Below, piece by piece: positions 35,015-61,596 of a DNA stretch of 64,000 nucleotides. Numbering within the stretch: the stretch's first letter is position 1; each line of letters begins with the position of its first letter. The notes under the pieces are model-generated. The model worked only from the letters and a program-made list of their open reading frames with translations, searched no databases and had not been told where the DNA came from. The translations under genes and the position numbers were made by a program. The stretch is from Gammaproteobacteria bacterium (GTDB lineage: Bacteria > Pseudomonadota > Gammaproteobacteria > SZUA-140): NCBI GenBank assembly GCA_046754065.1, contig JBHHVB010000008.1:2497-66496 (forward strand). The letters run 5' to 3'.

Positions 35015-35033
35015 CTGTAAATTTTGTTTTAAT

Positions 35034-35931: not shown

Positions 35932-36037
35932 AAAGATTCTGAGTGATGGCTCCGCTGTGTGCGACAGGATAACACCGTAGCGGATGGCAGTAAAATTGAA
36001 CCGGCGGCAAAGGTTGTCTCGCAATATACAGCTATAT

Positions 36038-37754: not shown

Positions 37755-37825
37755 GATGTCGGCCTTCCATGGCCGCTAGCCTGCTGGCAGCTAAAGCTGT
37801 CCCATTTTGTTCCGGACAAAATGGT
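37755..37825 (+). mobile_element. 71-nt structured T-loop insertion element (variant B)
   Basis: GATGTC start; GGCC/GGCC, GCC/GGC, CAGC-taaa-GCTG, CCATTTTG-ttccgga-CAAAATGG, ends GGT. Confidence 0.6.
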
Positions 37826-37864
37826 CGATTCCCGTTAATATGACGGGAATCCGGTGTTTCAAAA

Positions 37865-37996
37865 GCGGGTGTAGTTCAGTGGTAGAACGGGAGCTTCCCA
37901 AGCTCTTAATGTGGGTTGATGTCAGCCATCCCTGACTTCCACCCTTCGGGCAGCTAAAGCTGTCCCATTTTGTTCCGGACAAAATGGTCGATTCCC
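37865..37996 (+). pseudogene. Second tRNA-Gly(CCC) copy with one 71-nt T-loop insert
   Basis: Exact 53 nt 5' part 37865-37917, insert 37918-37988, CGATTCCC, no acceptor 3' strand. Confidence 0.8.
37918..37988 (+). mobile_element. 71-nt structured T-loop insertion element (variant C)
   Basis: GTCAG-ccatcc-CTGAC, CCC-ttc-GGG, CAGC-taaa-GCTG, CCATTTTG-ttccgga-CAAAATGG-T. Confidence 0.6.
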
Positions 37997-38027
37997 GTTA
38001 ATATGACGGGAATCCGGTGTTTCAAAA

Positions 38028-38101
38028 GCGGGTGTAGTTCAGTGGTAGAACGGGAGCTTCCCAAGCTCTTAATGTGGGTTCGATTCCCATCACCCGCTCC
38101 A
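38028..38101 (+). tRNA. tRNA-Gly(CCC), intact
   Basis: 74 nt GCGGGTGTAGTTCAGTGGTAGAACG..TT-CCC-AA..GTGGGTTCGATTCCCATCACCCGCTCCA. Confidence 0.96.
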
Positions 38102-38102
38102 G

Positions 38103-38975
38103 TTAATTCAAAAAGACCGAGCGCGCATCAAACACCGGGCCATCTACGCAAACACGCTTCATTGCAGGACCATCTTCGGTCATGACCTTTACCGTGCAAC
38201 CGGCGCAACCGCCTACCGCACAAGCCATCAATTCCTCAAGTGATACCTGACATGGTAGCCGATAGTCGTTAGCCAGTTTGGCAACCGCTTCCAGCATCGG
38301 GTGAGGACCGCAGGAGAAGATTTCAACTTCTTGCCGTTGTTCATCGGCCAATGCGTCGAGCCAGTTCCGAGCAAGGTCGGTGATGTAGCCGTCAAAGCAG
38401 CCCGGGTAACCCTGAAGACTTGTCAGGCGACAGGGGATTTGCCAGTCCTCCAGTAGTGGCATAGAGGCAATGACACCATCAGGCATTCCCGGAATCATGA
38501 TATGAGACGGGCGTAGCGTAAACGGAAATGGTACCTCGGAGCCTATCATAACCATGGGATTAAGCTGCCCGTTAAATTTCCTGCATTCGTCTGCCAGATA
38601 AATCATCGGTGGCATACCGATGCCACCACCCAGCAGTAGCGGACGTGGCCTGTTTTCGTGCAATACAAACGGATTGCCTATCGGGCCCAGTATGCTGATC
38701 TTCTCCCCTTTATTTCGTTGGGAAAGTAACAGGGTGCCCTCACCAAAAACGCGATACATTAGCTCTATCCAGCCGGTTTCCGTGTTTGCGCGCAAAATGG
38801 ATATCGGGCGCCTCATCGGCAGTTGCGAGTTGGTCTGAATATGGACAAAGCTTCCCGGTTTTGCCAGCCCGGCTATTTCCGGTGCATGCAGACGAATCAC
38901 AAACTGGTTTCCATCATAAGGGATGTGATCGAGTATTTCACAATCGGTTACTCGAATTGTGTTTCGATGATTCAT
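38103..38975 (-). CDS. pyrK: Dihydroorotate dehydrogenase electron transfer subunit
   Basis: RRPISI, GPIGN.F, GGGIG, CGP..ML, MACAVGGCAGC..VCVDGPVF. Confidence 0.88.
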   Translation of the reverse strand: MNHRNTIRVTDCEILDHIPYDGNQFVIRLHAPEIAGLAKPGSFVHIQTNSQLPMRRPISILRANTETGWIELMYRVFGEGTLLLSQRNKGEKISILGPIGNPFVLHENRPRPLLLGGGIGMPPMIYLADECRKFNGQLNPMVMIGSEVPFPFTLRPSHIMIPGMPDGVIASMPLLEDWQIPCRLTSLQGYPGCFDGYITDLARNWLDALADEQRQEVEIFSCGPHPMLEAVAKLANDYRLPCQVSLEELMACAVGGCAGCTVKVMTEDGPAMKRVCVDGPVFDARSVFLN

Positions 38976-44658: not shown

Positions 44659-45725
44659 GATTCAACAGGTGTAATGATAATTTCCTTTTCAATATTTTGT
44701 TCAAAATGGATGCGCTCAGCCATCTCGGGCGTCATGTGAATATTCATATGCTCATCAATCAGCATCACCCGGGATATATGCATTTGCCTGGCGATTTTTT
44801 GCCACTGGTCAGGGCCAGCGACAAAAAGTGCTGTAGCGGCCGCATCTGCAGTGGCGCCATCACTATGAATAACGGTTACAGAGCGTGTGCCTTTAGCCGG
44901 AAAACCGGTTCTGGGATCGATAATATGGTGAAAACGCTCCCCCTGATAGTCATAATATCGCTCATAATTGCCTGATGTAAAAACACTTTCATCACCGTTA
45001 GTGGTGATCGATGCAATGACGCCCTGTCCATCCGGGTGTCTGATGCCGATTCGCCATGGTCTGTTGCCATGTGTACCGATAGCGCGTAAATCGCCGCCAG
45101 CATTGATGATCGCATTGTTGATGCCATGATTCTTTAAAATTGATATCGCCTGGTCGACTGCATAACCCTTGGCAAAGCCGCCAAGGTCTAACTCAATCTC
45201 GGAATTGCTGCTACTGAGCGAGAGGGCGTCAAAATGCAATTGCTGCATGTTGGGGGCCTCGGCGACCAGTTTGCGAATTTCCCGAACAGCAGGTGGAGGA
45301 GGGGCTGGAGGATCATCACTGTGAAATCCCCATAGGGTTATCAACTTGCCTATGGCCGGGTTAAAAAGATGATCGCTGGCGATAGCGAGGTCTCTGGCTA
45401 GCACCAGGTGTTCGTATTCAACGGTCGTCAGATTAACGGTTTCTCCATTAGCCAAATGCTTATTTATCTCAACCAGTCGTCCGGGGTTCCAGGCGTGCCA
45501 TTTTTGATGAACTGCGTTCAGTCTGTTTTCGATTTCATGGATAACCGTGTCAGCCTTGTCCTTTTTGATATTCCATATCGAAATATCGATCAACGTACCT
45601 AGGCTAACCAGTTGTGCGTGGTAGGTCTTGTCCTTTTCCCCGCATGCAGTCAGGGCCTGCAAGGCAAAGATTAACAGCAGAAATCGGACTAAATAATGAT
45701 GAGGAAAATAACGTGGCGAAGTCAT
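44655..45725 (-). CDS. apbE: FAD:protein FMN transferase (lipoprotein)
   Basis: LTAC lipobox, DLGGFAKGY, NAGGD, TSGNYER, HIIDPRTG, ADAAATA. Confidence 0.93.
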   Translation of the reverse strand: MTSPRYFPHHYLVRFLLLIFALQALTACGEKDKTYHAQLVSLGTLIDISIWNIKKDKADTVIHEIENRLNAVHQKWHAWNPGRLVEINKHLANGETVNLTTVEYEHLVLARDLAIASDHLFNPAIGKLITLWGFHSDDPPAPPPPAVREIRKLVAEAPNMQQLHFDALSLSSSNSEIELDLGGFAKGYAVDQAISILKNHGINNAIINAGGDLRAIGTHGNRPWRIGIRHPDGQGVIASITTNGDESVFTSGNYERYYDYQGERFHHIIDPRTGFPAKGTRSVTVIHSDGATADAAATALFVAGPDQWQKIARQMHISRVMLIDEHMNIHMTPEMAERIHFEQNIEKEIIITPVES

Positions 45726-46669
45726 TGTAACCTGGAGGCGATTTTATCCATTAATATAGCACTAATATTTAGCGAATAAATGTTATCCAGTTCACGAATA
45801 CAGGTTGGGCTGGTTACATTAATTTCTGTCAGATAGTCACCTATAACATCAATACCTACGAACATCAGTCCCTTTTCCTTTAGCACATCCTTGATCTGGG
45901 CGCATATCCAGTGGTCGCGTTCAGTTAGCGGTACCCCAACACCTTTCCCTCCCATCGCAAGATTGGCCCTGGTTTCGCCTGCGGGAGGTATACGGGCTAG
46001 GGCGTAAGGCACGGGCTCTCCATCAATTAGCAGAATGCGCTTGTCACCTTTGGTGATTTCAGGAATATATCGTTGTACCATGACAGGTTGCTGAAACTGG
46101 TCTGTCATGGTTTCGATGATTACGTTTATGTTAGGGTCACCGGTTTTTACCCGAAACACCGAAGCGCCCCCCATCGCAGACAGGGGTTTTAGAATGATAT
46201 CCTGGTGTCGATCGAGGAACGATTTGATCAGATCTGATCTCGAGGTAACCAGTGTTGGTGGTGTGCATTGGGGTGACCAGGCAGTGTACAGCTTTTCATT
46301 GGCATCGCGGAGCGATTGAGGCTTGTTGACAATAAGCAAGCCGTCAGCCTCTGCCTGTTCCAGAATATAGGTCGAGTATATGTAGTTCATATCAAAAGGC
46401 GGGTCCTTTCGCATCAACAATACATCCAGCGAACCCAGCGGTCGTGCCTCGGCGCCACCCAGTGTATACCACCGTTGCAAATCGTCGTAGACAGTGATGT
46501 CCTGCATCAGGGCGTAGCTTTGGCCATTTATCAGGTAGAGATCCTGTTGTTCTATGTAGGACAGTTGCCAATCCCGTGATTGCGCCTCCAGCATCATCGC
46601 GAGTGTGCTGTCCTTTTTCGGATTAATGAGCCCAATCGGATCCATAACAATGCCCATTTTGATACTCAT
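45722..46669 (-). CDS. gshB: Glutathione synthetase
   Basis: VMDP..KKDST, MRKDPPF, NEKL, GDKR, EINVTSPT. Confidence 0.97.
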   Translation of the reverse strand: MSIKMGIVMDPIGLINPKKDSTLAMMLEAQSRDWQLSYIEQQDLYLINGQSYALMQDITVYDDLQRWYTLGGAEARPLGSLDVLLMRKDPPFDMNYIYSTYILEQAEADGLLIVNKPQSLRDANEKLYTAWSPQCTPPTLVTSRSDLIKSFLDRHQDIILKPLSAMGGASVFRVKTGDPNINVIIETMTDQFQQPVMVQRYIPEITKGDKRILLIDGEPVPYALARIPPAGETRANLAMGGKGVGVPLTERDHWICAQIKDVLKEKGLMFVGIDVIGDYLTEINVTSPTCIRELDNIYSLNISAILMDKIASRLQ

Positions 46670-46691: not shown

Positions 46692-47984
46692 TTAGTGTTC
46701 AGCTATTTCCCTGGCCGCAGCCAGTAGTGCTAGTCTGGCCATCACACCATAGGCGTAAAACCTGTTTGGATTCGCATCAGGGGCCATGTTGTGTTCTGGC
46801 GCGACACAGGGTTCAGCAAATGCGAGTGGTTCGAAGTGCATTCCAGGTGCATTGAGATTTTCATTAACACCCCGACGGGTGTGAACCCGATAAAACCCGC
46901 CTACAACAAAGTGATCTATCATATAAACGACGGGTTCCGCCACGGAGGATGCATCTCCCCATGTTTCGAAGGTATAGATGCCCTCCTGGAGAATGACCTG
47001 CGTAACCTCCATGCCGCTTTTGGACGCGGACATTCGGGTGCGTTGTTTACGATTGAGCCTTTGGACCTGTTCGGTATTGGTGACAGTCATGATACCCATA
47101 CCGTAGGTTCCAGCATCCGCCTTGATTACGACAAATGGTTCTTTATCAATTTGATACTCATCGTATTTTTTTTGGATCGCTGTAAGCAACGTGCTGACAT
47201 TCTGCTCCAGGCAGGCTTCCCCTTCACGCTTCATAAAGTTGATTTCGCCACACTTCAAAAATAGCGGATCGATAAGCCAGGGATCGATATCGATCATGGT
47301 TGAAAATTCTTCGGCAACTTTTCGATAGTGCGTGAAGTGGTCTGATTTAAGACGATTTGACCAGCCTAACGCCAACGGTGGGAAAACGGGTTGCTCGATA
47401 CCCACGAGCATTTCTGGTTTCCCGGAAGACAAGTCATTATTGAGAAGAACCATGCAAGGTTCAAAATCCTCTAACAAAACCTTGTTATTCTTTCTTACGA
47501 GTGGCTCAAGTAACAGCGTTAGACCTGATTCGAGCTCGATCGATTGGGGTGATTGAATCTCGCTAGCTAGCGACCCAATTCGCAGGTCGTAGCCTGCCTT
47601 GATAAAAATTTCCTGGAGTGAGGCCAGGCTTTCCAGGTAAAACGTATTTCTTGTGTGGTTTTCCGGAATCAGAATGATCTTGTTAGCCGTTGGACAAATT
47701 CGTTCAACTGCGGATTGTAATGCGTGAACAGCGAGCGTTGTAAACGCCGGACTAAGGTTGTTAAAACCAGCAGGGAAAAGATTGGTATCGACGGGTGCCA
47801 GTTTAAACCCTGCATTTCGAAGGTCTACAGATGCGTAAAAGGGCGCAGCGGTTCGCTGCCACTGGCTGCGAAACCATGATTCGATCGAGGACTGGTTTGC
47901 CAGAAGATGCTTTTCTATGATCTGTAACGGGCCATCCAGTACTGTGGTCAGATGTGGTACAGGCTGAAGATGTTCTATAGTCAT
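46692..47984 (-). CDS. gshA: Glutamate--cysteine ligase (betaproteobacterial/Acidithiobacillus type)
   Basis: PFYASVDLRNAGFKLAPVDTNLFPAGFNNL, KADAGTYGMG, ENLNAPG; adjacent to gshB. Confidence 0.92.
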   Translation of the reverse strand: MTIEHLQPVPHLTTVLDGPLQIIEKHLLANQSSIESWFRSQWQRTAAPFYASVDLRNAGFKLAPVDTNLFPAGFNNLSPAFTTLAVHALQSAVERICPTANKIILIPENHTRNTFYLESLASLQEIFIKAGYDLRIGSLASEIQSPQSIELESGLTLLLEPLVRKNNKVLLEDFEPCMVLLNNDLSSGKPEMLVGIEQPVFPPLALGWSNRLKSDHFTHYRKVAEEFSTMIDIDPWLIDPLFLKCGEINFMKREGEACLEQNVSTLLTAIQKKYDEYQIDKEPFVVIKADAGTYGMGIMTVTNTEQVQRLNRKQRTRMSASKSGMEVTQVILQEGIYTFETWGDASSVAEPVVYMIDHFVVGGFYRVHTRRGVNENLNAPGMHFEPLAFAEPCVAPEHNMAPDANPNRFYAYGVMARLALLAAAREIAEH

Positions 47985-48552
47985 GGATAAGAGCTGTATA
48001 TCGGTAAGATTTAATCAAATGTATATTAGGGGAAAAAACTGTATTAAGAAACCTTGGAAATGTTTGTTATCACATGATTTATGACCGAATTGCCAATTTT
48101 CAATACCTTATCTACATGAAAAAATTGAAAAAATATCTTGTTGTGGATTTATGTTTACCTATGCACCAATTCGGGTTGTGCAGATTCGATCCAGCGATGG
48201 CCCACGGAATGCCCGTTTTTGGCAGGTCAAATCATTATGTCTAGTGTAAAAAATAATGGGAACGGGGGCATAAATCGCTGTATAATTCGATCCAGGGGAA
48301 CCCGGCTATATCTTCCGAGAATGTTCAGGCATTGACCTGAACGAAATGTTATAAAAATGATCATAACTAAGTGATGCCGGCTCAGAAATATGATTGATTC
48401 ATCGATGCGCATGGGTTGCCGCTTGTCCATCATCATGCTTGAAATTAGCCGGGATGGCGATGAAAGGCATAAAGTCTGGAAAATGGGGCTAAATGATCCA
48501 TTTGTCTTTAACATGATTGATGAAGGGAAAATAACTGATGCCAGGTTGAATT

Positions 48553-49005
48553 GTGTTTTGGGACTCTAACTTAAACAGTAACAAGAATATCCGTGTTTTA
48601 GTCGTTGACGACAGTACGGCTATTCAGACGATTACCAGGTCCCTTTTGGTAAAAGAGGGCTTCGAGGTCTGTACTGCAAGTAATGGCTATGAAGCGTTGG
48701 CAAAAGTGGTGGATTTTCAACCCAGGGTAATCCTGCTGGATGACAGCATGCCTCGTCTGGATGGATATGAGACCTGTGCCGTTATCAAAAATCATGACCG
48801 GTATAACCGAATTTTCGTCGTCATGTTATTAAGTCAGGATGGTCTGATCGACAGGGCAAGAGGACACATGGCAGGCGTTGATCATTTTCTGACAAAACCT
48901 TTCACACGAGAGGAGCTACTTGGTGTTATCAGGCCTTTTCAACCCGATAGCAACGATGAATTTGAAGAAAAGTCTGGTTCAAAGGAAGTGCTGATTAAGA
49001 ATTGA
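48553..49005 (+). CDS. pilG: PilG-like response regulator
   Basis: VDDS, LLD.SMPRLDGY.TCA.IK, DGLIDRARG..AG...LTKPF; divergent from gsh genes as in Pseudomonas. Confidence 0.85.
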   Translation: MFWDSNLNSNKNIRVLVVDDSTAIQTITRSLLVKEGFEVCTASNGYEALAKVVDFQPRVILLDDSMPRLDGYETCAVIKNHDRYNRIFVVMLLSQDGLIDRARGHMAGVDHFLTKPFTREELLGVIRPFQPDSNDEFEEKSGSKEVLIKN

Positions 49006-49069
49006 AAAAAATTATGTGTTCGTAGCCGAAACGAACCACTATAAATAATCAAATTGAAGAGTCTTAACT

Positions 49070-49717
49070 ATGTTTGAATATAAAGCTAAGGCTATGGATG
49101 GTCAGCAGGTAGATATGGATATACCTACACATTCTGAAAATCAAGGGTACCAGAACTGGCATGATCACGGTTTTGATTCAGAACGTATCAGTATCGTCCC
49201 CCCGATTGTTGCTCCTGAGGAAAGTGACCGGATAGTTGTTGCAACGCGTGCTAAAAACAGTTTTGACCAATCGGACCGGGAATTAATGGCCGGTCTGCAA
49301 CTGTTAACCGGGGACTTGCGAATTTATTTCCCGCTTGATGTGATTAGCTCGGTTTGTGCCCGTCCTGCGATCAAGCCTATACCTTGTAGCCAACCCTGGG
49401 TTGCCGGACTCGCCAATATTGACGGGCAGCTAGTGACGGTTATAGACCTGTCACGATTCATCGGTCTTGAAGAACAAGTTGATAATCAATATGTTGTCCT
49501 GATCAAGCGCCCAGATAATCCGGTTGGTTTGCTGGTTAATGGTGTGCCTCGGATCAAGTGCCTGAATCCTGAGATGACTAGCAAAGATATTCCACGCTCT
49601 TTGTCGATAATCAGCGATTCCATCGATGGAATAATAAAAGAAAACAATATCTTGTCTGTTATAATCAGCGTAAGGAAGTTCCTGTCCAGTGATCGATTCG
49701 TTAATTTGTCTCGATGA
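49070..49717 (+). CDS. pilI: PilI/CheW-like adaptor (divergent)
   Basis: PIP.SQPWV.GLANIDGQL..VIDL..F; GLLV. Confidence 0.78.
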   Translation: MFEYKAKAMDGQQVDMDIPTHSENQGYQNWHDHGFDSERISIVPPIVAPEESDRIVVATRAKNSFDQSDRELMAGLQLLTGDLRIYFPLDVISSVCARPAIKPIPCSQPWVAGLANIDGQLVTVIDLSRFIGLEEQVDNQYVVLIKRPDNPVGLLVNGVPRIKCLNPEMTSKDIPRSLSIISDSIDGIIKENNILSVIISVRKFLSSDRFVNLSR

Positions 49718-49812
49718 CCTTTAAGTAACCGGGGGCTGCCAAATCGTCGCTTTTGCCACCATTTGAGAATTAAAACAATAATAGATATCTCTATCAGGTT
49801 GTAGGAATCATA

Positions 49813-51876
49813 GTGAAGATAAAAAAGAAATTCGGTGCATCGAGAAAAGCGTGCGCAGGTCTGTCTTACCCGGTTGTGCTGCTGGGCTTACTGGGTTTGG
49901 TTGTCGTAGTCATTACCGTGTTGTTGGCTTATACAGTTGTTCAGCTAAAAGACAATATCAGGTTAAATGACTTGCTAAATGAAGAACGGGTGCTTGTGGA
50001 GAAAATAGGATATGACGTCAATTTAATATCAAACCTGGATCTAAATGGATTTGCGCTGCTTGAACAGGATTTGGATAGACTGGGGGGGCTGTTTAACGAA
50101 ATAAAACAATCCGTCAATACCGGGGATCATGGTGGAGATATTGTTAGCGCGATGAACCAGCTTGAAAGCGAGTGGTTCAGGCTTAGAAACGACCTGACGG
50201 GACTCGCGTCTCACCAACCGTCTTTAGCCGAAATTTACCAGATTGTCGAAGGTATCAGAGGCGTTGTAGCAGATATAAAGACTGAGCTGGGCAGCATTGA
50301 GCGTGACATGGCAAATATTGAACTGTCAGCGTCTGATGCGTTTTTGTTAGCCCAGCAGTCAACCCTGATTCAACGCTTGTCCTACAATGTGGAGCAACTG
50401 GTTTTTGGAGGGAATCATACTGATCGGCTTTCGGTGTACGAGAGAATCGGAAGTGATTCCGCCGTGTTTGAGCAGACACTACAGGACTTTATTAAAGGCG
50501 ATAAATTAACAGGAAAAAATGGTGGAGGTGCAGCGCGGGTTAGGGAAAGTTTGCTCAAGATAAACAAACACTTTGTTGATATTTCCGGGAGGATAAACGG
50601 GTTAATTGGTGTTGAGCAAGACCTGATAGACATGATAGCGCAATCCAGGGGTGTATCGGTGTTACTGGCTGTGTTTAGCGAAACTAGCGCAACATTGTCT
50701 CATGCCTATAGCGCTTATTTACAGAATAATACAACCTCCATGCGTGCCGGGTATATTTTAAGCAGTATGGCTATTCTTTTTATCACGATGTTGGGGTTTC
50801 AGCTCAAGTTGATACTTCGTAACGAGTTCATCAATGCGGAACATGCTGAGTCCAGTACCTTGGCAGCCTTTGTTGTCGGTGAGCTGGAGAGAATAAAATC
50901 GGGAGATTACCGGCAAATATCCAGCGCCTCAGCCCAAATACCTTCGCAAATTGTAGACGCATTTAATCATTTTTTATCAGGCATCGAAGGTCAAAAGTCA
51001 TCCGCCGACAACGTGACCACAGGGGTGGCGAAACTTGCCCAGGACATCAAGGTAACCGTTCTCCGTACGGTTGGTGTCGCGGATAAACTGGCAGACCAGA
51101 TTGATTGCCTTAATTCACATAACGACGTACTCACTACCGGTATTTCCAGAATTTCAACCGAGTTACCCCGCATGAAGGATTTGATCAAGGAACTCACAGA
51201 CAGCGAGGCTAGTTTTCCTGCTGCATTTTCGCAGATAAAAGCAGAATCCGATGCATTGTGCGAAGCCGTAAGCGATGCCTCGAGGGAAATTGAAAATCTG
51301 GCTGGCAGTATGGGTAATATTGGCGTGGTTACAGATCGAGTGCAGGCAGCAGGCAACCAAATCAATCTATTATCCTTGAACGCGGCAATTGAAATCGGAC
51401 ATAGCAAGAAGGAGGTTGAGCTTATTTTATCAGCAGAGGAAATTCAGCGAAGTGCCGAGCGAATATTGTCCGATGTTGATGAGTTAAATTCATTGGTAAC
51501 TACTGTCCAGTCGCAAGTGGAGCACATATCTCTGAATATCGATCAACATCGGGACAGATTTATGGAATCAGTCACGCTGGATAATGACATTTCCGGGGAT
51601 GCAAGTGGATCAGGGAAAATAACCAATGAATTTGAGAAACAATTCTATGGGCTTGTTAAGAATATCAAGGAGCAGATCGACGCGAATAAAATGATGACTG
51701 ATGAGTTGGCAAATGTTCAGCAATCTGTCGTAGCGGCCTCGGCAGAGATTAATGCTATGATGGCTCAACTGGATGCCCTCGTTAAGGCATCTGTAAACGG
51801 GGGAGGTTCCATTGGTCGCTCCGGTGCCGGTACTGAAAGATCTCCTGATAAAATGGATAAAGCTAACCTTCACTAG
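49813..51876 (+). CDS. pilJ: PilJ-like chemoreceptor, degenerate
   Basis: Two TMs, Q..LIQRL periplasmic motif, QINLLSLNAAIE..AEEIQRSAER. Confidence 0.75.
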   Translation: MKIKKKFGASRKACAGLSYPVVLLGLLGLVVVVITVLLAYTVVQLKDNIRLNDLLNEERVLVEKIGYDVNLISNLDLNGFALLEQDLDRLGGLFNEIKQSVNTGDHGGDIVSAMNQLESEWFRLRNDLTGLASHQPSLAEIYQIVEGIRGVVADIKTELGSIERDMANIELSASDAFLLAQQSTLIQRLSYNVEQLVFGGNHTDRLSVYERIGSDSAVFEQTLQDFIKGDKLTGKNGGGAARVRESLLKINKHFVDISGRINGLIGVEQDLIDMIAQSRGVSVLLAVFSETSATLSHAYSAYLQNNTTSMRAGYILSSMAILFITMLGFQLKLILRNEFINAEHAESSTLAAFVVGELERIKSGDYRQISSASAQIPSQIVDAFNHFLSGIEGQKSSADNVTTGVAKLAQDIKVTVLRTVGVADKLADQIDCLNSHNDVLTTGISRISTELPRMKDLIKELTDSEASFPAAFSQIKAESDALCEAVSDASREIENLAGSMGNIGVVTDRVQAAGNQINLLSLNAAIEIGHSKKEVELILSAEEIQRSAERILSDVDELNSLVTTVQSQVEHISLNIDQHRDRFMESVTLDNDISGDASGSGKITNEFEKQFYGLVKNIKEQIDANKMMTDELANVQQSVVAASAEINAMMAQLDALVKASVNGGGSIGRSGAGTERSPDKMDKANLH

Positions 51877-54611
51877 TGGTAAAAATGCATAACCGGGCTG
51901 AAATAAAAGTAATCCATGATACGGTAAAGCAAGAGGCGATTTCAGATCTTGTTGCAGCAAAGACAATTGTTAACGCCCTCGCAGAAAATGATGGCCGCCC
52001 GCGTTTGAATGAACTCACTCGGCTTATATCACAGACTCGGAGTGGGTTGGTCATGATTTCCTGTGATGCTGAGATTCGCCTGATCGATGATATTGCAAAT
52101 TATATTAACACGCACTTTGTTCATGACAGGGATATCGATCCCACAAAGTTAAGATTGATGATTCAGGCGCTCAATACGGCGATCTACCGTTTGGATAGCC
52201 TGGATGGTGCTGGTATGGAAGAAACATTACTTGGGGACGGTGCCGGGCGTGTGGAGCAGACATCCAGTGGCGCATCAATGAAAATCTGTTCTGGTGGAAC
52301 GTTGACCGCAACCTTGAACGAGGTAAGCGAAGCTATCGAACCGCCTCCTAACGCCTCGCTAGAAGCGACCCCAAGCTTAAAGAAGCCTGTTTCATTTCCG
52401 GATCGAGGTTCATTAAGCAAGGATATAGATGAGTTTTTTATTCAGGAGTCAGCTGCTTTGCTTGCATCTGTCATTGAATGCTATGAAGAATGGCGACAAT
52501 CGCCCGATAAAACGTCGCTGGAAAAATCCTTGTATGATGCCTTGATCAATATGAAGAACAGGGCGTTAATCGCCGGTGTTGACGAAGTTGCAGAACTTTT
52601 CCATTATCTGACTGATATCCTGCGTATTAAGGATGAGCCTGGATTGGTTAACCAGAACGATGTGTTCGGGTTTTTTGAGGAATCTTTCTCCGGGTTACAA
52701 ACCATATTTCAGCAAATGCGCCAGCACCTGCCCGTGGCAGGTATGAATAACTTACTGGAACGTATGAATAATGTGATTAGTAAATCACACTACTCATGTG
52801 TGGATAAGAGCAGGATTTCAGACGATGCACGGTCTGGAATTGCCGGGCGTTCTGGAGGCGGCGAGATTGACGAAAGTAATCGAATCGAGGAATTTAAAAA
52901 ACTTCATCTTGATAACAATGATCTTCGCAAACAAATCGAACGCCATTGCAGGATCAATCATTCATTGTTGAGTTCATTGTCGCAGACAATTGAAAGTCTG
53001 GATCAGGGGGTCGAAGATTTCCTCAATTACAGTGTAAGCCATCGTTACAAAGATTCTTCAGCTACCAATAGCGAAACAAACCAATCGGGCAAATTGCTAA
53101 ATATTGAGACATCTCTCGGTGCACGCCGGATAAAAGACCGCTTGTTGGCCTCAACGGCCAAAATTAAAAAGATCAGGGATAAACTCGGATCAACGGGAAA
53201 GTTGACCGAAAAAACGCTTTTGCAACTTGCGCGTACCAGCGAGGAATTTAGTCGGACTATTGAATCATCGGAATCCGAGTTTTTGGGTCACCACATACCT
53301 GAATTGATGCGGCTTATTGAAACTAGTGCGGCTCGTCACGATAAAATAATCAAGTTAGTCGTGATGGGGGAGGATGTAAACATAAGTCAACAAATATTCA
53401 AATGCTTATGGAATCCGTTAACCCAGTTGCTGGATTGCGCCATCGAAAACGCAATCGCATTACCCGATGCAAGAAGCAGATCGGGTAAAGACGAATGTGC
53501 TGAATTGACGTTTGCTGTCGCGCAGGACGGGTCTGATCTGGTGATGACTGTTAATCTGGACGATGACGGGATTGACCTTGATAATCATGCCTGCCTCGAG
53601 GAGACAGATGCACATTTCCTTGAGACTTATGAGAACCTTGTGGTAGCCGTGTCATCTGTCGGGGGAAGTGTTAATACCCATTTTTCTCATGAAAGTGGTA
53701 ACAAGATTGTAATTCGCATACCAAAGCTTGTCAGACGACAGCAGGTTTTGATGATCGATGTTGATGGAGAATTTTACGGGATTCCGATTGCTGATATTGA
53801 GGACGTCGTTCATGGTTCCCAATCGGAATTGAAATTCGTATCGTCTTTGCATAAAACGCGTTATGTTTTTGGCGGGCATATCTACCGTCCAGGGCATTTG
53901 GGTCGATTGCTCACCGGCCGTTCAGAGACAGAGTATCTACCAAAGTCCGATAGTGAAGTTGTTTTATTAGTGAATATTCAAGGAGAGAGGTTTGCTTTGG
54001 TGGCCAATTCACTATTGGGTTCACGTGAAGTGATGGTTAGGCCACCAGACTGTCAGCTAAGTACCGTCAAGGTGATTTCCGGGACCGCCTTGATGAATGA
54101 TGAAATATTGTTTGTACTTGATCTTGCGGAATTGCTTGAAATAGATCGTTCTGGATTTTCAGCTGCCGACGTGGAATCAGAGGGTGGAGACCAGGCTAGA
54201 TCGAATGTGACCGCGATGATTGTTACAGATGCTGGGGACAGCGTGATCAACCAGGTGCTTGAAAGTTATAAAATTAAAGTGGTAATGGCCTGTGATGGGG
54301 AGCATGCTATGTCTCTGCTAGATGGGCAACTGCCGGATATAATCTTGATCAGGGAATCTTCCGATAATGTCGATGGCCATGAATTGTTAGGCAGGATACG
54401 GTTTAATGATCGCTTAAGGAATATTCCCGCAATCTTGTTCACGAGTTCAGAGTTTTTAACGTATAATCCCAATGAAGATAGTTTTAGTCGTGAATCAGGT
54501 GCCGGGCTGGAGGTGGGTGATATGTCTCATATATTTGATGCTCAAGATTGTCTGATCAACAACGAGTATGAGTTGATCGATAACATCTATTCACTTGTCG
54601 GGTGTCGGTAA
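51876..54611 (+). CDS. chpA: ChpA/CheA-like protein, shortened and lacking phosphorelay residues
   Basis: Order of Hpt-like (EFFIQES), HATPase-like, CheW and REC-like domains; operon position. Confidence 0.72.
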   Translation: MVKMHNRAEIKVIHDTVKQEAISDLVAAKTIVNALAENDGRPRLNELTRLISQTRSGLVMISCDAEIRLIDDIANYINTHFVHDRDIDPTKLRLMIQALNTAIYRLDSLDGAGMEETLLGDGAGRVEQTSSGASMKICSGGTLTATLNEVSEAIEPPPNASLEATPSLKKPVSFPDRGSLSKDIDEFFIQESAALLASVIECYEEWRQSPDKTSLEKSLYDALINMKNRALIAGVDEVAELFHYLTDILRIKDEPGLVNQNDVFGFFEESFSGLQTIFQQMRQHLPVAGMNNLLERMNNVISKSHYSCVDKSRISDDARSGIAGRSGGGEIDESNRIEEFKKLHLDNNDLRKQIERHCRINHSLLSSLSQTIESLDQGVEDFLNYSVSHRYKDSSATNSETNQSGKLLNIETSLGARRIKDRLLASTAKIKKIRDKLGSTGKLTEKTLLQLARTSEEFSRTIESSESEFLGHHIPELMRLIETSAARHDKIIKLVVMGEDVNISQQIFKCLWNPLTQLLDCAIENAIALPDARSRSGKDECAELTFAVAQDGSDLVMTVNLDDDGIDLDNHACLEETDAHFLETYENLVVAVSSVGGSVNTHFSHESGNKIVIRIPKLVRRQQVLMIDVDGEFYGIPIADIEDVVHGSQSELKFVSSLHKTRYVFGGHIYRPGHLGRLLTGRSETEYLPKSDSEVVLLVNIQGERFALVANSLLGSREVMVRPPDCQLSTVKVISGTALMNDEILFVLDLAELLEIDRSGFSAADVESEGGDQARSNVTAMIVTDAGDSVINQVLESYKIKVVMACDGEHAMSLLDGQLPDIILIRESSDNVDGHELLGRIRFNDRLRNIPAILFTSSEFLTYNPNEDSFSRESGAGLEVGDMSHIFDAQDCLINNEYELIDNIYSLVGCR

Positions 54612-55680
54612 ATTGTTGCCTGATCACAACAATGTGCCTTTACGCGTTGCAATAGTGACGAATTCCCCGCAGCCAAATGAAACGCTTTCTGATTATATGC
54701 GGTCATTTGGTTTAAATGTTGTGCTAAACGCTCCTCTTTCTGTCAAAACGCTCGGTAAGCTCCGGGAAAATAACATAGATGTTTTACTGGTAGATCTTGG
54801 AATGGGAGGAGTCCCCAAAGAAGAGTGTATTGAATTGCTGCATGGCGAGCTCGATATACCCGTACTTTATAATGATGGGCTAGTTACTTCCGGAGACGAT
54901 GAGCAGGACGAAAGCCAGATGATGATGCTGAGCCAAAAACTGGCTCAAGCGTGTGGTAGAAAACTGCCAATAGTTGATAACGGAGATAGTGATAGATCAG
55001 TTTTGAATGCTGATGATAGAGAAAGACTAAAAGTGATTGATGAGTCGAACATTACACCGATGCCGATAAATCCGACTACTGAAAAGCATGGTATTGCGGA
55101 TCGAGTATGGGTGCTTGTGGGTTCAATAGGCAGTATTAATGCGATAATGCAGTTTTTGTGCAGAATACCTGCCGATTTTCCTGCTGCATTTATTATCTCG
55201 CTGAAAATTGATGAGCGAATTCTCCCGATGTATAAAAAAGTTGTCGAGGAAAACACCGCATTCCGGGTTTTTTTGGCAGAGCACGGGCATGCGCTAAAAC
55301 GAGGTGAAGTTATTATCGCCTCTCAAGTCAATCATTTGTCAATTAATGCAAATGGTGAGGTGCAAATGTATTCCCCGTTGGCAGAGTTCGGTTGGAATGA
55401 GCACCGGGATGACTTGATGAGAGCAGTGGCTCAACAATACCACGATCATGCTGGTGTTATCGTTTTTAGCGGTATTAGTCACGACGGGATCGATGGTTGT
55501 CGGGCGATTACCGAATGTGGGGGAATGGTTTGGGTTCAGAGTGCGGACAGTTGTTTGTACAAAAGCATGCCGGATTTTGTCCGTGATATGTGTAGCGTTA
55601 CCTACAGTGATTCGCCAGAACTGATGGCCGTCCATTTGGCCGAGGATGTTAGGCAAGTTCAGTTGGCAAACGCAGTTTAA
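54595..55680 (+). CDS. chpB: ChpB/CheB-like methylesterase, degenerate
   Basis: RVWVLVGSIG, IVFSG..HDG..G, GG.VW.Q...SC...SMPD. Confidence 0.78.
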   Translation: MSGVGKLLPDHNNVPLRVAIVTNSPQPNETLSDYMRSFGLNVVLNAPLSVKTLGKLRENNIDVLLVDLGMGGVPKEECIELLHGELDIPVLYNDGLVTSGDDEQDESQMMMLSQKLAQACGRKLPIVDNGDSDRSVLNADDRERLKVIDESNITPMPINPTTEKHGIADRVWVLVGSIGSINAIMQFLCRIPADFPAAFIISLKIDERILPMYKKVVEENTAFRVFLAEHGHALKRGEVIIASQVNHLSINANGEVQMYSPLAEFGWNEHRDDLMRAVAQQYHDHAGVIVFSGISHDGIDGCRAITECGGMVWVQSADSCLYKSMPDFVRDMCSVTYSDSPELMAVHLAEDVRQVQLANAV

Positions 55681-55687: not shown

Positions 55688-56455
55688 TTAATCAGCTTGC
55701 CGGGAAAAGTCCCCCCATAATGTCTGAATTGCCGCGATTGCCGCGATGCTGGCAGTTTCTGTTCTTAGAATTCTCGGGCCGATTTTTACCGGAATAAAAC
55801 CAACATTTTTAACACTGGAGATTTCGTGCGGGCTGAGACCACCTTCTGGTCCGATTAATAATGAAACATTGTGGTCTGTCATCATTATATTGGACAACAC
55901 ATTGGTGCTTAAGGGGTCAAGTACCAGTCGGGTAGGTTGTTGAGCAATATCTCCTGTATTCTTTTTTTCACCTTCGAGCCACTCCTCGAAGGTCGCTGGT
56001 GTAGTAATCGTGGGAATATTGGCTCGACCACATTGCTCGCAGGCGCTAATCAGGATTGATTGCCAATGTTTATGTTTTTTTGTGGCCCTGTCTTCCTCCA
56101 GCTTAACCACACTGCGTTCGGTAATTAACGGAATAATTGCGTTGACGCCTAATTCGGTAGATTTTTGTAAGGTGTAGTCCATGCGTTCTCCACGTGAGAC
56201 TCCCTGAATGAGCGTTAGATGAATAGGGGATTCAGTTCTATTTTCACAGGCCTGACCCAGGCAGATCGTTGTTGACCTTCTTTCAACGGAGGTTACCGTT
56301 GCTTCGAATTCGCCATCTTGTTCATTGAAAATGAAGATTGGTGCGCCGGGTTTAAGGCGTAAAACACGCGCTATATATTTGCTGGTGTCTTCATCAAGCA
56401 TAACATGCGGTACATTTGCCAAATTAGCGCTACAATATATTCTCGGTTTTCGCAT
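55688..56455 (-). CDS. rsmE: 16S rRNA m3U1498 methyltransferase
   Basis: VLRL, QKSTELGV, ACEQCGR, IGPEGG, GPRILRTETA. Confidence 0.96.
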   Translation of the reverse strand: MRKPRIYCSANLANVPHVMLDEDTSKYIARVLRLKPGAPIFIFNEQDGEFEATVTSVERRSTTICLGQACENRTESPIHLTLIQGVSRGERMDYTLQKSTELGVNAIIPLITERSVVKLEEDRATKKHKHWQSILISACEQCGRANIPTITTPATFEEWLEGEKKNTGDIAQQPTRLVLDPLSTNVLSNIMMTDHNVSLLIGPEGGLSPHEISSVKNVGFIPVKIGPRILRTETASIAAIAAIQTLWGDFSRQAD

Positions 56456-56468
56456 TGGCGTATTTCTA

Positions 56469-57818
56469 TCAGCTCCGGGTTGCCTGTTGTATGCCTTCCC
56501 ACGCTACACGGGAAATTGTGGCTATTTGCTCATCATTGATTACATAAGGAGGCATGAAGTAGATAACGTTACCCAAAGGTCGTAAAAGCACACCGTTTTT
56601 CAATGCGAATTTATAGACTTTCAATCCTCTTCTTTCCTGCCAGGGGAACGGTTCCAGGGTATCCTTATTCTTTACCATTTCAATAGCGAGTATCATTCCG
56701 CGTTGTCTTACGTCACCTATATGGGGATGTTCTATAAATCCGGCGGTATGGCGGCCCATTGAATTGATCAACAATCGGTTTTTTTCGATAATTTGCTCTT
56801 CCTGGAAAATTTTAAGCGTCGCGAGCGCTGCGGCGCAACCAAGTGGATTGCCGGTATAGCTATGTGAATGTAGGAATGCCCGCATGCTTTGGTAATCATC
56901 AAAGAAGGCGTCATAGACCTGGTCGGTCGTCAGCGTTACAGATAATGGCAGATATCCACCTGTCAGTCCTTTTGAAAGGCACATAAAGTCAGGGCAAATA
57001 TTAGCCTGTTCGCTGGCGAATAACGTGCCTGTGCGTCCAAACCCCACAGCGATTTCGTCTACAATCAGATGGACATTATAGCGATCACATGCTTCTCTCA
57101 ATAATTCCAGATACACAGGATGATACATTCTCATGTTGCCGGCACATTGTACCAGGGGCTCTATGACAACTGCGCAAACTTCATGGTGGTGAGTTTGAAG
57201 AGTCTGTTCCATTTCTTTAAACAGTTGTTCGGCATGTTCCTTCGCAGATACATCCGGCATTTTGTGGAAGCAATCCGGGGAGGTGACCGATATTGTATCC
57301 ATTAGCAGAGGACCGTAGGTTTGTTTGTACAGATCTACATTGCCGACAGCCAAAGCGCCCAAGGTCTCTCCATGATAGCTGTTAGTCAGCGTTATAAAGC
57401 GGGTTTTGCCATGCTCACCACAATTACGCCAGTAGTGGTAGCTCATTTTCATGGCCACCTCGATGGCAGACGAGCCATTATCTGCATAAAAGCAACGAGT
57501 GAGCCCTTTTGGCGTCAATTCAACAAGTTGTTCAGAAAGCTGGATGACGGGCTCGTGAGTAAACCCCGCTAACAGGACATGTTCTAGATTGTCGAGTTGA
57601 GAACAAATGGCCTGATTAATCGTGGGGTTTCCGTGTCCGAAAAGGTTTACCCACCAGGAGCTGATTGCATCGATATATCGATTTCCATCAAAATCTTCTA
57701 ACCATACCCCGTCTCCTTTTTTTATGGGTATCAACGGTAAATGAGCATGATCCTTCATTTGTGTGCACGGATGCCATAGAACAGACAGGTCTCTCTTGGT
57801 AAGCGATTTATTTGACAT
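56469..57818 (-). CDS. bioA: DAPA aminotransferase
   Basis: WHPCTQM, SSWW, DEIAVGFGRTG, SKGLTGGY, HSHSYTGN. Confidence 0.96.
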   Translation of the reverse strand: MSNKSLTKRDLSVLWHPCTQMKDHAHLPLIPIKKGDGVWLEDFDGNRYIDAISSWWVNLFGHGNPTINQAICSQLDNLEHVLLAGFTHEPVIQLSEQLVELTPKGLTRCFYADNGSSAIEVAMKMSYHYWRNCGEHGKTRFITLTNSYHGETLGALAVGNVDLYKQTYGPLLMDTISVTSPDCFHKMPDVSAKEHAEQLFKEMEQTLQTHHHEVCAVVIEPLVQCAGNMRMYHPVYLELLREACDRYNVHLIVDEIAVGFGRTGTLFASEQANICPDFMCLSKGLTGGYLPLSVTLTTDQVYDAFFDDYQSMRAFLHSHSYTGNPLGCAAALATLKIFQEEQIIEKNRLLINSMGRHTAGFIEHPHIGDVRQRGMILAIEMVKNKDTLEPFPWQERRGLKVYKFALKNGVLLRPLGNVIYFMPPYVINDEQIATISRVAWEGIQQATRS

Positions 57819-58724: not shown

Positions 58725-59708
58725 TTACGCTTCCTCTCCAGATTTTTTATCTTCAGCTTCTTCGCTGGAATCTTTATTATCCGCTGATGTGCCGTCACTC
58801 TGAGAGGATTCTGGTTCATCCAGATCGTCAAGATCGAGGTCAATTTCTCCAAGTAGTGCATCAATATCATCCTGATCCGTTGGTTCAGACTCAGGCTCGG
58901 GTTCAGGCTCGGGTTCGGGTTCAGGCTCGGGTTCGGGTTCAGGCTCGGGTTCGGGCTCAGGCTCGGGTTCAGGCTCAGGCTCAGGCTCGGGTTCAGGCTC
59001 AGGCTCGGGTTCAGGCTCAGGCTCGGGTTCGGGCTCAGGCTCGGGTTCGGGCTCAGGCTCAGGCTCGGGTTCGGGCTCAGGCTCGGGTTCCTCAAGTGGA
59101 ACCTCCTGATGATTTTCATCGACGACGATTCCCTCCTTCTCTTTTCCTGGTTCTTCCGCCCTGGTCGCATCGAGTATGCCGCTGTTGAATGCTGAAGTGT
59201 ATTCGCTGAGCGCTGCCTTCATTTCGGCCTGGGTTTGATGAAGTTCTGTTGCCAGCTTGTCATTTTCTTCCTTAAGTGAATCAACCGTATTTGATAGCGC
59301 AATGAATTCCTCATTATTAGTGATATCGCCGCCGACGGTTTCCAGGTGTAGTTGATGATAGACATTGATTGTTTCTTTCATATTTTCCGCAAAGGCTTCG
59401 ATATGTTCCTTGTCCTGGTGGGTATAGCTATCGACAAGGCTGTGCATGAGCACCTGTTCCTGTTTAATGATTTTGGTAACGGTCTCCTGGGATTTTTCAG
59501 GGTCAAACTCATAATGTTCGACGAGCATGTCGTGGAGCATCTCCTGGCGGGCTACTTCAACTTCCTTGATTTTTTCGCTGAGTTCCTCGGGAATGACGCT
59601 GGCTGTACGCTTGCGAATATACAAAAATGTCAGAACACCAGAAATAATCAATAAAACAAGGCATATTTCTGCGAGGACTATTGTTGATGTTGCGTAGAAA
59701 CTATTCAT
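58725..59708 (-). CDS. Membrane-anchored coiled-coil protein with (EP)33 linker and acidic tail
   Basis: N-terminal TM, helical acidic region, EP repeat; ATG overlaps the stop of the upstream VWA gene. Confidence 0.75.
58893..59090 (-). repeat. 33 x 6-bp repeat GARCCY encoding (EP)33
   Basis: 198 bp of GAA/GAG-CCC/CCT units. Confidence 0.95.
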
Positions 59709-61596
59709 GGGATGTTTCACTCCATGGGTTGAAATTAGATTTTAATCTGCTGAGCACCTTTTCCCTGTTTTTGTAAGTAAACCATAAGCCGGCTATCAAT
59801 AATCCATTAAAGATTATCACTTGAGATGCCACGATTAGCCAATTAGGATCGCTGCCTTCATCAGGATTTTCATTGTCGGCAGGAATATCCTCCTGTTCTG
59901 ATTCAGACGTCAGTTCTGCTTCATCGATAACATGCTCACCATTTTCAGGTATATCCGTGGCGTCGTGTTCTTTTAATGAAGCTATTTCTTCGGCAAAGAT
60001 TTCGTTGTCCTCTTCAGAGCCACCAAAATACAATGGCCCCGTTCGCTTGGTGACAGGCTTTCCACTGCTGCGTTCGCCGGAGATATTCAGCATGATTTTA
60101 TGCCTGGTGTCATGAGAATATTCGTTCAAATCCAGTTGCCATTCCGTTTCACTCGCGCGTGTGACCGGATGGTGACTACTCTCTCCATTTGCGTCCGTAA
60201 TGTCCGCTTCAATCTGCATGCTGTCCGGATCGATCATGCCAGACCGAGGGGTAACAACGATACGCTCGAAAACGGCGTCCTCGTGTTCATTGTAATACTC
60301 ACTGATTCCAGTAATGACTGGGCTGTCATACACGTTTATAGTTTGCCGATGAGTTCTCTGGAATGTTGTACCATCGATGTCTACTATCAGCTCATGCCTG
60401 CCTTCTACCAGGGTATCATCGAGGATGATGCTGTAGGTACCATCATCACGTTCCTCGTCTGCTCTCCGTCCATTGTCAAGGAGTGTCCAGGCCCAGATTT
60501 CACCGCCTTGCTGCTTTTGCGTTAGCTTTACCTGAATAAAATGCAGAAAGTCCTTCTCTTTGATAATGCCATCCCGCTGGGTTAGCGTAACGAGAAAGGT
60601 ATATTTATCACCCAGGCTTATGTTGTTTGGCAGGTCCGTTGTAATGGTGCGTAGGTTGGTAATGACCATGACACGATTGTCAGGATCGGATTTGGCATTC
60701 ACTTTCCATTCGCCCACTATTGGACTGTCTATCGTAATCAGGTTATATCGTTCTTCGTGATGCCAGTTGACGTTTTCGGATATCGAGTCTTCTGAAAAGG
60801 TGCTGCCATCTGGCCTGGTGACGATCAGTGGCTCGTCATCAGTTGAGCGGAAGATTAATAATGTTAATTCTTTGATGCTGTCATCAACCAGTACCTTGTT
60901 TTCTACAAGCGGAAGCATATCCGGATTCGCAGCCTTCTCAAACATACGTAAAAAGATTCGTTCGAGTCCGTCTGCTGTTTTTGCCTTTTCATGCCAACCG
61001 TCGGTGGTTGCTGCCAGTTGTTTTAACAACACCTCATCGGCCTCACCGGATAGTGCTATCGTATGAATCGTAACGCCCGCTTTTTTTAGTCGAGGTAATA
61101 TTGAACTGATGATCCGTTCGCGGGATTGATCGTTTAGGCGAGAATTTTTTGAAATATCAACCAAACCGTCGGTAAGAAGGATGACGCTGCGTTGTTGTGT
61201 TTTATCGGGTTCCTTCCAGTTCCATGTCGATTTATCGAGAGCTTCTTCAATATGGGTAAACAGACCTTTGGAGTGAATTTCACTGGCGGCATTTTTGGCA
61301 TTGGTTTTCCAGGACTTATCAACTCGATCATAGGGAACAAGCATATTCACAAATTTACCAAAGGTCCAAACACCTGCGCTGGTGCCGGTTGGGAGCAGGC
61401 TGGTAAGCATGCGCAGGGCCGGTCTGCGTAAATTCTCAGGGTCGTTCCATTTCATGCTGCCGGAGACATCGATGAGAATTCTAATATCACTCGTTGCCTG
61501 GGGTTCTGGTGGCTCGACAGACCATGCAGATGGAACCACCGAGAAAAATATCCACAGTGCAGATAAGGTCAGCTTCTTTCCTTGCTTCAGATACAA
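59701..61596 (-). CDS. Exported VWA-domain protein with C-terminal TM anchor
   Basis: Signal peptide, DVSGSM..NDP.NLR MIDAS, LTDG, DNG...D...DDGTYS motif, C-terminal TM. Start codon uncertain. Confidence 0.8.

Follow-up and report, generated by a model that had tools for sequence, protein, structure and literature searches.

Can the genes of a chemosensory pathway persist after its enzymes have lost the residues on which catalysis depends, and in which role would their products then be kept? This question is raised by a five-gene operon in a 64,000-nucleotide stretch of a gammaproteobacterial genome (assembly GCA_046754065.1, contig JBHHVB010000008.1, positions 2,497 to 66,496, forward strand); "the window" denotes this whole stretch. 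The operon is related to the Pil-Chp system, the genes of which are ordered pilGHIJK-chpABC in Pseudomonas aeruginosa, and a first-pass annotation of the window had described it as kept in frame throughout and catalytically eroded. We compared it with canonical systems, with the remainder of the window's genome (G000; 2.79 Mb, 144 contigs, 99.98% complete) and with a family set of 36 species genomes from 11 genera. On the resulting evidence we lean, by a modest measure, towards a pseudoenzyme remnant of Pil-Chp, the proteins of which are made and are kept by selection for a non-catalytic role.

The operon consists of five co-directional open reading frames (ORFs) with 0 internal stop codons at 48553-55680 of the forward strand, between gshA and rsmE. 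They encode a PilG-like single-domain response regulator (48553-49005; 150 amino acids [aa]; Pfam Response_reg, 81.4 bits), a PilI-like CheW adaptor extended at its N terminus by about 75 aa (49070-49717; 215 aa; Pfam CheW, 66 bits, residues 80-207), a PilJ-like transmembrane receptor with a degenerate signalling tip (49813-51876; 687 aa), a putative ChpA-like pseudokinase (51876-54611; 911 aa), and a ChpB-like protein with an esterase fold (54595-55680; 361 aa). The reading frames of pilJ and chpA overlap by 1 nucleotide and those of chpA and chpB by 17 nucleotides. The long uninterrupted ORFs and overlapping junctions of the first-pass annotation were thus all recovered, and so was the absence of pilH, pilK and chpC from the locus: the gshA-rsmE interval contains these five ORFs only, and Pfam detected no CheR, second single-domain regulator or second CheW among the five proteins. 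The operon is reduced to pilG-pilI-pilJ-chpA-chpB. Its position, given earlier as lying between gshB and rsmE/bioA, is indeed the Pil-Chp site, but the immediate upstream neighbor is gshA (46692-47984, reverse strand; "ferrooxidans" type, TIGR02049, 594.5 bits), and gshB lies one gene further (45722-46669, reverse strand; Pfam and NCBIfam). The downstream flank is formed by rsmE and bioA (55688-57818, reverse strand; NCBIfam, 300.6 and 841.2 bits).

To place the locus, we inspected these flanks in three genomes that belong to other families of the same class (G026, G036, and G040). In all three, the gshB/gshA flank adjoins canonical pilG, and pilG, pilH, pilI, pilJ and a chpA encoding 1,883-2,187 aa are present at these flanks; rsmE/bioA follows canonical chpC in G026 and G040, and G026 contains the complete pilG-H-I-J-K-chpA-B-C set between gshA and rsmE. 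An exhaustive HMMER search with the ChpA-like protein covered 1.84 billion representatives. The best 150 matches, which were the ones considered, were all long ChpA-type proteins (937-2,752 aa) with 22-30% identity, and the top match scored at most 194 bits versus 2,011 bits for the protein itself. Because the flanks match canonical loci and the best matches are all of the ChpA type, the operon is a strongly derived, vertically inherited, in-place ortholog of canonical pilGHIJK-chpABC. The gshB-gshA ("ferrooxidans" type)-pilG arrangement is common to the window, G036 and G026. Between gshA and pilG lie 570 bp, with a 95-aa ORF (48227-48514, reverse strand) that had no Pfam or NCBIfam match and is probably no gene. 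Promoter and terminator scans of the locus gave signals no higher than those in shuffled sequence.

The ChpA-like protein was compared with the canonical proteins of G026, G036 and G040, with three CheA/CheB paralogs of its own genome, with 28 ChpA-type proteins and with solved CheA structures. The names and functions of the CheA/ChpA motifs are established knowledge; the columns reported here were taken from the alignments. Its Pfam matches were limited to CheW (45.5 bits) and, below threshold, Response_reg (24.1 bits; cut-off, 30.2), with none to Hpt, H-kinase_dim or HATPase_c, and the NCBIfam CheA models scored 92.9 and 47.6 bits versus cut-offs of 950 and 793. At the level of structure, an AlphaFold2 (AF2) model built on an alignment of 31 sequences had a mean predicted local distance difference test score (pLDDT) of 75.1, and Foldseek matched it to a CheA P3-P5 structure (6s1k_A; E-value, 3.6e-21). 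The 28 canonical ChpA proteins share 172 columns with a conservation of 90% or more, and 59 of these are kept.

All domains of this protein lie on the forward strand. The N-terminal Xpt-A (aa 6-110; 51891-52205; helices with pLDDT 76-95) is a four-helix Hpt-like domain with Ser at the His position, and its counterparts in the alignment are the N-terminal Xpt domains of a canonical ChpA, which naturally lack the His. The next domain, Xpt-B (aa 182-306; 52419-52793; pLDDT 81-96), is also Hpt-like and aligns with the kinase-proximal Hpt (independent E-value, 2.2e-6). Here the acceptor His is replaced by Ile: the H224 column contains His in 28/28 canonical ChpA proteins, Ile in the window and Ala in G006, the genome of a sister genus. 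In a whole-genome scan, there was no Hpt match at an E-value of 1e-1 or lower (E ≤ 0.1) on the window's contig, and 9 Hpt domains were found elsewhere. A P3-like dimerization hairpin follows (aa 333-465; 52872-53270; helices 333-396 and 405-465; pLDDT 64-79), with 7 of 36 conserved columns kept.

The P4-like degenerate ATPase domain (aa 467-619; 53274-53732) is modeled with high confidence (pLDDT 85-94), which is low only at residues 569-576, where the ATP lid is missing, and it matches P4 domains with template modeling (TM) scores of 0.72-0.77 in Foldseek. Its N box reads QLLDCAIENAIA versus the canonical HLLRNA.DHGIE, with N521 replaced by C; the G1 box is altered, and the F box, the G2 box (GRGVG) and the ATP lid are deleted. 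In an alignment with Thermotoga CheA from the PDB, query residues 572-590 stand at the place of chain residues 107-160. The domain retains 10 of 43 conserved columns. The P5 CheW-like domain (aa 620-760; 53733-54155; pLDDT 68-91), to which the Pfam CheW match belongs, retains 11 of 25 (Foldseek 4jpb_A; TM score, 0.81). In the C-terminal receiver fold (aa 779-857; 54210-54446; pLDDT 81-93), D784 is replaced by T, the acceptor D826 by R, and K888 by D, with 23 of 49 conserved columns kept. Taken together, the alignments and the model indicate a protein that has kept the CheA fold, has lost normal ATP binding, has no His to phosphorylate and ends in a pseudo-receiver.

A similar picture emerged for the ChpB-like protein, in which the fold is kept (CheB_methylest, 109.8 bits versus a cut-off of 24) and the NCBIfam CheB models score 77.1 and 75 bits versus cut-offs of 342 and 293. 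Its "triad" is Ser-Lys-Asp, with Ser (GSIGS) and Asp retained and His replaced by Lys (SLKIDE); it is Ser-His-Asp in the canonical ChpB of G026 and in the three CheB paralogs of the window's genome. Given the loss of catalytic residues from both the kinase and the methylesterase, these proteins probably survive in a non-enzymatic role.

The PilJ-like receptor has two apparent hydrophobic membrane-spanning segments, as judged by eye, and it retains the topology of PilJ and collinearity with it. Its MCPsignal score was 19.8 bits, under the Pfam cut-off of 34.6; the genome scan, in which 12 other receptors exceeded the cut-off, gave it 24.3 bits. At the tip, NLLSLNAAIE is kept, and IGHSKKEV-ELILSA stands at the place of AGE.GRGFAVVA in canonical PilJ. 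For the PilI-like protein, the best pairwise match among the references was PilI of G026 (23% identity; E-value, 2.5e-13). The PilG-like protein shares 52-53% identity with the canonical PilG proteins of two other families and 27-31% with PilH/CheY, and in the alignment it retains the DD pair, acceptor Asp, Ser/Thr position (S) and Lys.

The first-pass annotation had reported PilJ, ChpA and ChpB to lack their signature residues within an operon eroded as a whole. For ChpA this was borne out in the alignments with the 28 canonical proteins (H224 to I, N521 to C, GRGVG deleted, D826 to R), and for PilJ by the replaced GRGFAVVA motif of the tip. For ChpB it was correct as to His only, since the catalytic Ser and Asp are retained. 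The erosion is not operon-wide: according to the alignments and Pfam, it affected the PilJ-like, ChpA-like and ChpB-like proteins, but not the PilG-like and PilI-like ones. As judged from these residues, every enzyme of the operon seems to have become a pseudoenzyme; the receptor tip is degenerate, and the PilG-like protein alone among the operon proteins keeps every phosphorylation residue.

The same residues bear on the possibility that the enzymes are divergent and still active with unconventional residues. In its favor, P4 keeps its Bergerat-type fold and the ChpB-like protein its esterase fold, and Ser and Asp of the ChpB triad remain. However, the ATP lid is deleted, the N-box Asn is gone and no His, Ser or Thr is found at the acceptor column of Xpt-B. 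Furthermore, the position of the ChpB His is occupied by a different residue in every lineage (K, Y, R, or H retained), which is not what a new catalytic residue would be expected to show. We consider unconventional catalysis to be very improbable.

To determine whether the operon has counterparts, we searched the family set, in which there is no second genome of the window's genus. A match to the ChpA-like protein at an E-value of 1e-12 or lower and a match to PilG at 1e-20 or lower were each obtained in 2/36 genomes, namely, the window's genome and G006. Of the 35 other genomes, G006 also has the highest PilT identity (91%; the rest, 81-88%). Further close relatives of the ChpA-like protein were sought in a word-based protein search, which returned only the protein itself above 25% identity, and no close cluster was found in the exhaustive HMMER search or in a JGI metagenome scan.

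G006 contains a syntenic four-gene operon encoding PilG-like, PilJ-like, ChpA-like and ChpB-like proteins, all with open frames. It is degenerate at the same places as the window's operon, with different residues: in addition to Ala at the Hpt His, the N-box Asn is replaced by Phe, the G2 box reads SSGIQ, the ChpB triad is Ser-Tyr-Thr, and the receptor tip is altered. Its HATPase_c domain is still above the Pfam cut-off (34.8 bits). The recurrence of this architecture in an independent genome argues against an assembly or annotation artefact, an explanation that the 144-contig draft state of the window's genome might otherwise invite; moreover, the region lies inside one contig, between conserved flanks, and its composition is even, with a GC content of 43-46% throughout the operon region. 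The chance that an artefact accounts for the operon is negligible.

Several other genera of the family showed more advanced states of reduction. Neither full-length ChpA nor PilG was matched in any of the nine other genera, whereas PilT was present in 36/36 family genomes with 81-91% identity. The gshA/rsmE junction was inspected in five other genera (G003, G005, G010, G011, and G014). In G011 the locus is deleted and gshA directly adjoins rsmE. At the junction in G005 and G014, there is a single ORF (252 and 216 aa, respectively) that encodes the ChpB esterase domain only, with Thr-His-Asp in the former and Ser-Arg-Glu in the latter, and three further species have the order gshB-gshA-(esterase-only ORF with Ser-Arg-Glu)-rsmE. 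These stand-alone ChpB-like ORFs are 216-264 aa long (L042, 8964-9722, reverse strand; L040, 140-790, reverse strand; L050, 3690-4484; L052, 5815-6591; L053, 5839-6531), with Thr-His-Asp in 1/5 and Ser-Arg-Glu in 4/5. G003 has a 476-aa "mini-ChpA" between gshA and rsmE (L038, 839-2269, forward strand; Hpt, 29.5 bits; HATPase_c, 62.1 bits) that possesses the canonical Hpt His and N, G1, F and G2 boxes and is devoid of P5/CheW and receiver; no pilG, pilI or pilJ is nearby, and three further genomes of this genus contain ORFs of 484-488 aa that match the same ChpA region. This protein is an orphan Hpt-kinase left over from Pil-Chp. In G010, gshA is followed by unrelated genes on a short contig stretch that has no operon, rsmE or bioA match. 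The comparison of these loci shows a stepwise reduction of Pil-Chp across the family.

We next consider whether the operon is under selection. The enzyme folds, as modeled, the reading frames and the codon usage of the operon are kept. In a neutral simulation, the five frames were all open in 148/2000 runs at 0.01 substitutions per site, in 10/2000 at 0.02 and in 0/2000 at 0.05, so that frames close after approximately 2-5% divergence; this lends weight to the earlier argument that 7 kb of open frames speak against neutral decay. Codon-usage scores in frame were at the 17th to 55th percentile of 682 long ORFs, and the other two frames scored 0 or less. Furthermore, both the window's genus and that of G006 keep every frame open despite saturated divergence. 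From the open frames in two genera, the neutral simulation and the codon usage, we infer that selection acts on the operon.

Rates of change varied among the genes. Nonsynonymous divergence (dN) between the window and G006 was 0.21-0.25 for gshA, gshB and bioA, 0.53 for rsmE and PilG, 0.70 for ChpB, 0.97 for ChpA and 1.03 for the PilJ-like receptor. As a control for the proportion of nonsynonymous differences (pN), we shuffled the codons of the partner sequence, which gave a baseline pN of 0.55-0.58. The values for PilG (0.397) and ChpB (0.457) were clearly under this baseline. Among the esterase-only remnants, the four with Ser-Arg-Glu, which belong to a sister genus, had a ratio of nonsynonymous to synonymous divergence (dN/dS) of 0.29-0.39 at dS 0.53-0.81, and their flanking genes had ratios of 0.17-0.22. 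In this family, then, selection can maintain a ChpB-like domain even when its catalytic residues are atypical.

Several observations weigh against maintenance by selection for a non-catalytic role. The operon proteins are only 24-44% identical to those of G006, versus 67-71% for gshA, gshB and bioA and 91% for PilT. The proportion of synonymous differences (pS) between the two genomes is 0.73-0.93 for every gene, flanks included, and since the synonymous sites of the only ortholog are saturated, dN/dS of the window's genes is not estimable. The pN values of the receptor (0.559; baseline, 0.576) and the kinase (0.543; baseline, 0.572) are near those of shuffled sequence, and most of their positions therefore seem free to vary. 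The G006 operon has neither a CheW gene nor a ChpA receiver, so that no fixed complex composition is conserved. There was no PilG or ChpA-like match in 34/36 family genomes, all 36 of which have PilT, and Pil-Chp is therefore dispensable for pili in the family. In addition, the alignment on which the AF2 model depends for its confidence consists mostly of canonical ChpA proteins and so favors the canonical fold.

These observations bring to the fore the alternative that the operon is a relic under relaxed selection: the family would no longer need Pil-Chp, the catalytic residues would have been lost first, and the genes would await deletion. The states of the locus in relatives fit this explanation, including its deletion in G011, the single gene left in G003, G005 and G014, and the prior loss of pilI and the ChpA receiver in G006. 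It is also in line with the restriction of PilG and ChpA-like matches to 2/36 genomes, PilT being present in 36/36, with dN values 4-5 times those of the flanks and with the near-baseline pN of receptor and kinase. Since the nine other genera are without a full-length ChpA or a PilG match and the locus is lost or reduced in four of the five inspected, relaxed selection is a serious alternative and the main rival. However, a relic is difficult to reconcile with approximately 2,300 codons in G000 and approximately 2,000 in G006 that are free of stops despite saturated synonymous sites, when simulated neutral evolution closes the frames at 2-5% divergence. The normal codon usage, the conservation of structural Gly/Pro and core positions in domains that are predicted to be folded, and the pN of PilG and ChpB, clearly below shuffled values, point in the same direction, as do the single-gene remnants of the sister genus, which are under purifying selection. 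On balance, we regard the relic as unlikely.

Another alternative concerns the source of phosphoryl groups. The intact acceptor site suggests that PilG is still phosphorylated by something outside the operon. The phosphorelay might be completed in trans, in that PilG receives its phosphoryl group from a genuine CheA, one of the three in the genome, or from a small phosphodonor, with the P5 of the ChpA-like protein, the PilI-like protein and the PilJ-like protein linking that kinase to the receptor, as happens in split CheA pairs. Besides the full set of PilG phospho-residues, this idea could draw on the P5 domain, which is among the better-kept parts (11/25 columns; 32% identity to G006), and on the three CheA proteins themselves, encoded on contigs C9 (flagellar type), C13 (Wsp-like) and C25, all of which have canonical motifs. 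The genome scan yielded 12 CheW-domain matches along with the 12 receptors above the MCPsignal cut-off, and the chemosensory matches fell in three clusters on these contigs, save two CheW genes on the short contig C86. Nevertheless, none of the three CheW/CheA/receptor clusters is pilus-type, each has its own receptor and CheW, the receptor tip that is meant to bind P5/CheW is itself degenerate in the operon, and no orphan Hpt-kinase like that of G003 was seen in the window's genome. Completion in trans is therefore improbable in our judgment.

The same scan disposed of the earlier proposal that an active paralogous pilGHIJ-chpA elsewhere complements the operon: no second Pil-Chp system was found in the genome, the clusters being of the flagellar type (C9), Wsp-like (C13) and of a STAS/CheD/RsbU type (C25). 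An ORF on contig C27 with two Hpt domains was rejected as a candidate, as its product, judged by eye, is a hybrid sensor kinase that combines a periplasmic domain with PAS, HisKA and receiver domains. The C13 cluster (29287-38344, forward strand), named Wsp-like on gene order and alignments only, encodes a methyl-accepting chemotaxis protein, CheW, a 425-aa protein in the CheR position, a further CheW, a CheA-receiver protein, CheB and a 349-aa protein in the WspR position. The C25 cluster (2762-15086, reverse strand) begins with STAS, CheY, CheA, CheW and a 940-aa receptor with several PAS-like repeats and continues with CheR, CheD, CheB, a second receptor, STAS and a receiver/PP2C-like/HATPase protein; by eye, it looks like an alternative-function type coupled to partner switching.

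The pilus machinery is represented in the genome by PilB (873.7 bits), two PilT/PilU-family ATPases and FimV, and a PilC-like gene that adjoins PilB scores 418 bits, under the 700-bit equivalog cut-off. The minor-pilin operon of the window (10009-16450, reverse strand), first annotated as intact, has reading frames that are open throughout. It comprises genes for GspH/FimU-like, PilV-like and PilW proteins, two small ORFs, a 1,125-aa PilY1, the domain match of which is modest (44.2 bits), and a 140-aa ORF in the pilE position. Adjoining this operon is a gene for a 446-aa protein with a cytochrome c554/c'-type domain (17882-19222, forward strand; 46.6 bits). Beyond gshB, further upstream of the Pil-Chp locus, are an ApbE-family gene, tonB, algH, pyrR, pyrB and a pyrC-like gene. 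A region at 58725-61596 (reverse strand) encodes a 631-aa VWA-domain protein and then a 331-aa protein with an acidic Pro/Glu-rich repeat, which has a weak PARP-repeat match below the cut-off (31.9 bits) and is overlapped by a 161-aa ORF that is open on the opposite strand.

If the operon is indeed kept for a non-catalytic role, its proteins would most likely form an assembly of receptor, CheW and pseudokinase in which the Hpt-like and P5 domains dock PilG or position it near the type IV pilus machine, a role that would be akin to that of FimL, the His-less ChpA paralog of Pseudomonas. Any phosphorylation of PilG would draw its phosphoryl group from outside the operon. By analogy, the ChpA-like protein is perhaps a scaffold for PilG. 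A scored complex prediction for PilG and the N-terminal 330 residues of the ChpA-like protein, made without controls, gave 0.22 and 0.25 versus a mark of 0.32, values that speak neither for nor against binding. In a more far-reaching version, a whole pathway (receptor, CheA-class kinase, its receiver and methylesterase) has turned into pseudoenzymes around a phosphorylatable PilG and now works as a binding or positioning array without phosphotransfer, the related genera representing intermediates of dismantling or rewiring. We regard this version as conceivable but rather doubtful.

Chemosensory arrays are usually described as kinase machines. Should the far-reaching version hold, a CheA-class protein with array-forming domains that neither binds ATP nor carries phosphate would be a natural separation-of-function variant, which would reveal the non-catalytic abilities of the receptor/CheW/P5 lattice and of Hpt-like domains and would extend to a complete pathway the idea, derived from FimL, that His-less Hpt domains are scaffolds for PilG. 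The loci also form a natural series that runs from the canonical eight-gene operon of other families through five genes and four to single-gene remnants and deletion, with the pilus motor unchanged, and this series could show the order in which a signalling pathway loses its parts. A limited search of the open-access literature, which is not proof of absence, found no CheA-class pseudokinase or degenerate ChpA; pseudo-histidine kinases, such as DivL, and pseudo-receivers are already known.

Compared with canonical Pil-Chp, the operon shares its position between gshA/gshB and rsmE/bioA with three canonical relatives, and it shares the order G, I, J, A, B, a PilG ortholog with 52-53% identity and the ChpA-type architecture of Xpt domains, P3-P4-P5 and C-terminal receiver. 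It differs by the absence of pilH, pilK and chpC, by a disrupted ChpB triad and by the loss of the PilJ tip motif, and its ChpA has 911 aa (versus 1000-2750), two Xpt domains, and no His, ATP-binding motifs or acceptor Asp. In Rhodobacter sphaeroides, CheA3 and CheA4 are a split pair, each of which is without a functional P1 or P4 and depends on its partner. There, the partner in the same cluster supplies the missing activity, whereas no such partner is encoded here.

Pseudo-receiver domains are described as common in bacteria in PMC12632262. The C-terminal domain of the ChpA-like protein resembles them as a receiver fold without the acceptor Asp, but in the operon its degeneration coincides with several others within the same pathway. 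The histidine-kinase fold of Caulobacter DivL is, according to part of PMC4211667, kept for sensing or scaffolding a response regulator rather than for catalysis, and the likeness to that account lies in a kinase fold in a non-catalytic role. DivL is of the HisKA type, serves cell-cycle control and belongs to a pathway that is otherwise enzymatically active, whereas the protein studied here is of the CheA class and would be part of a receptor array. A further comparison is FimL of P. aeruginosa, which a section of PMC3019171 describes as a ChpA-derived protein with two Hpt-like domains that have Gln at the acceptor sites. Passages of the review PMC12632253 state that FimL and FimV are required for the polar localization of PilG and propose that those Xpt domains of ChpA that are not phosphorylated could serve as protein-binding scaffolds. 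The ChpA-like protein of the window likewise has two Hpt-like domains without acceptor His, in a genome that encodes a FimV homolog. However, FimL is a separate paralog beside an active ChpA, whereas the His-less protein described here is the only ChpA and still carries a degenerate P3-P4-P5 and a receiver.

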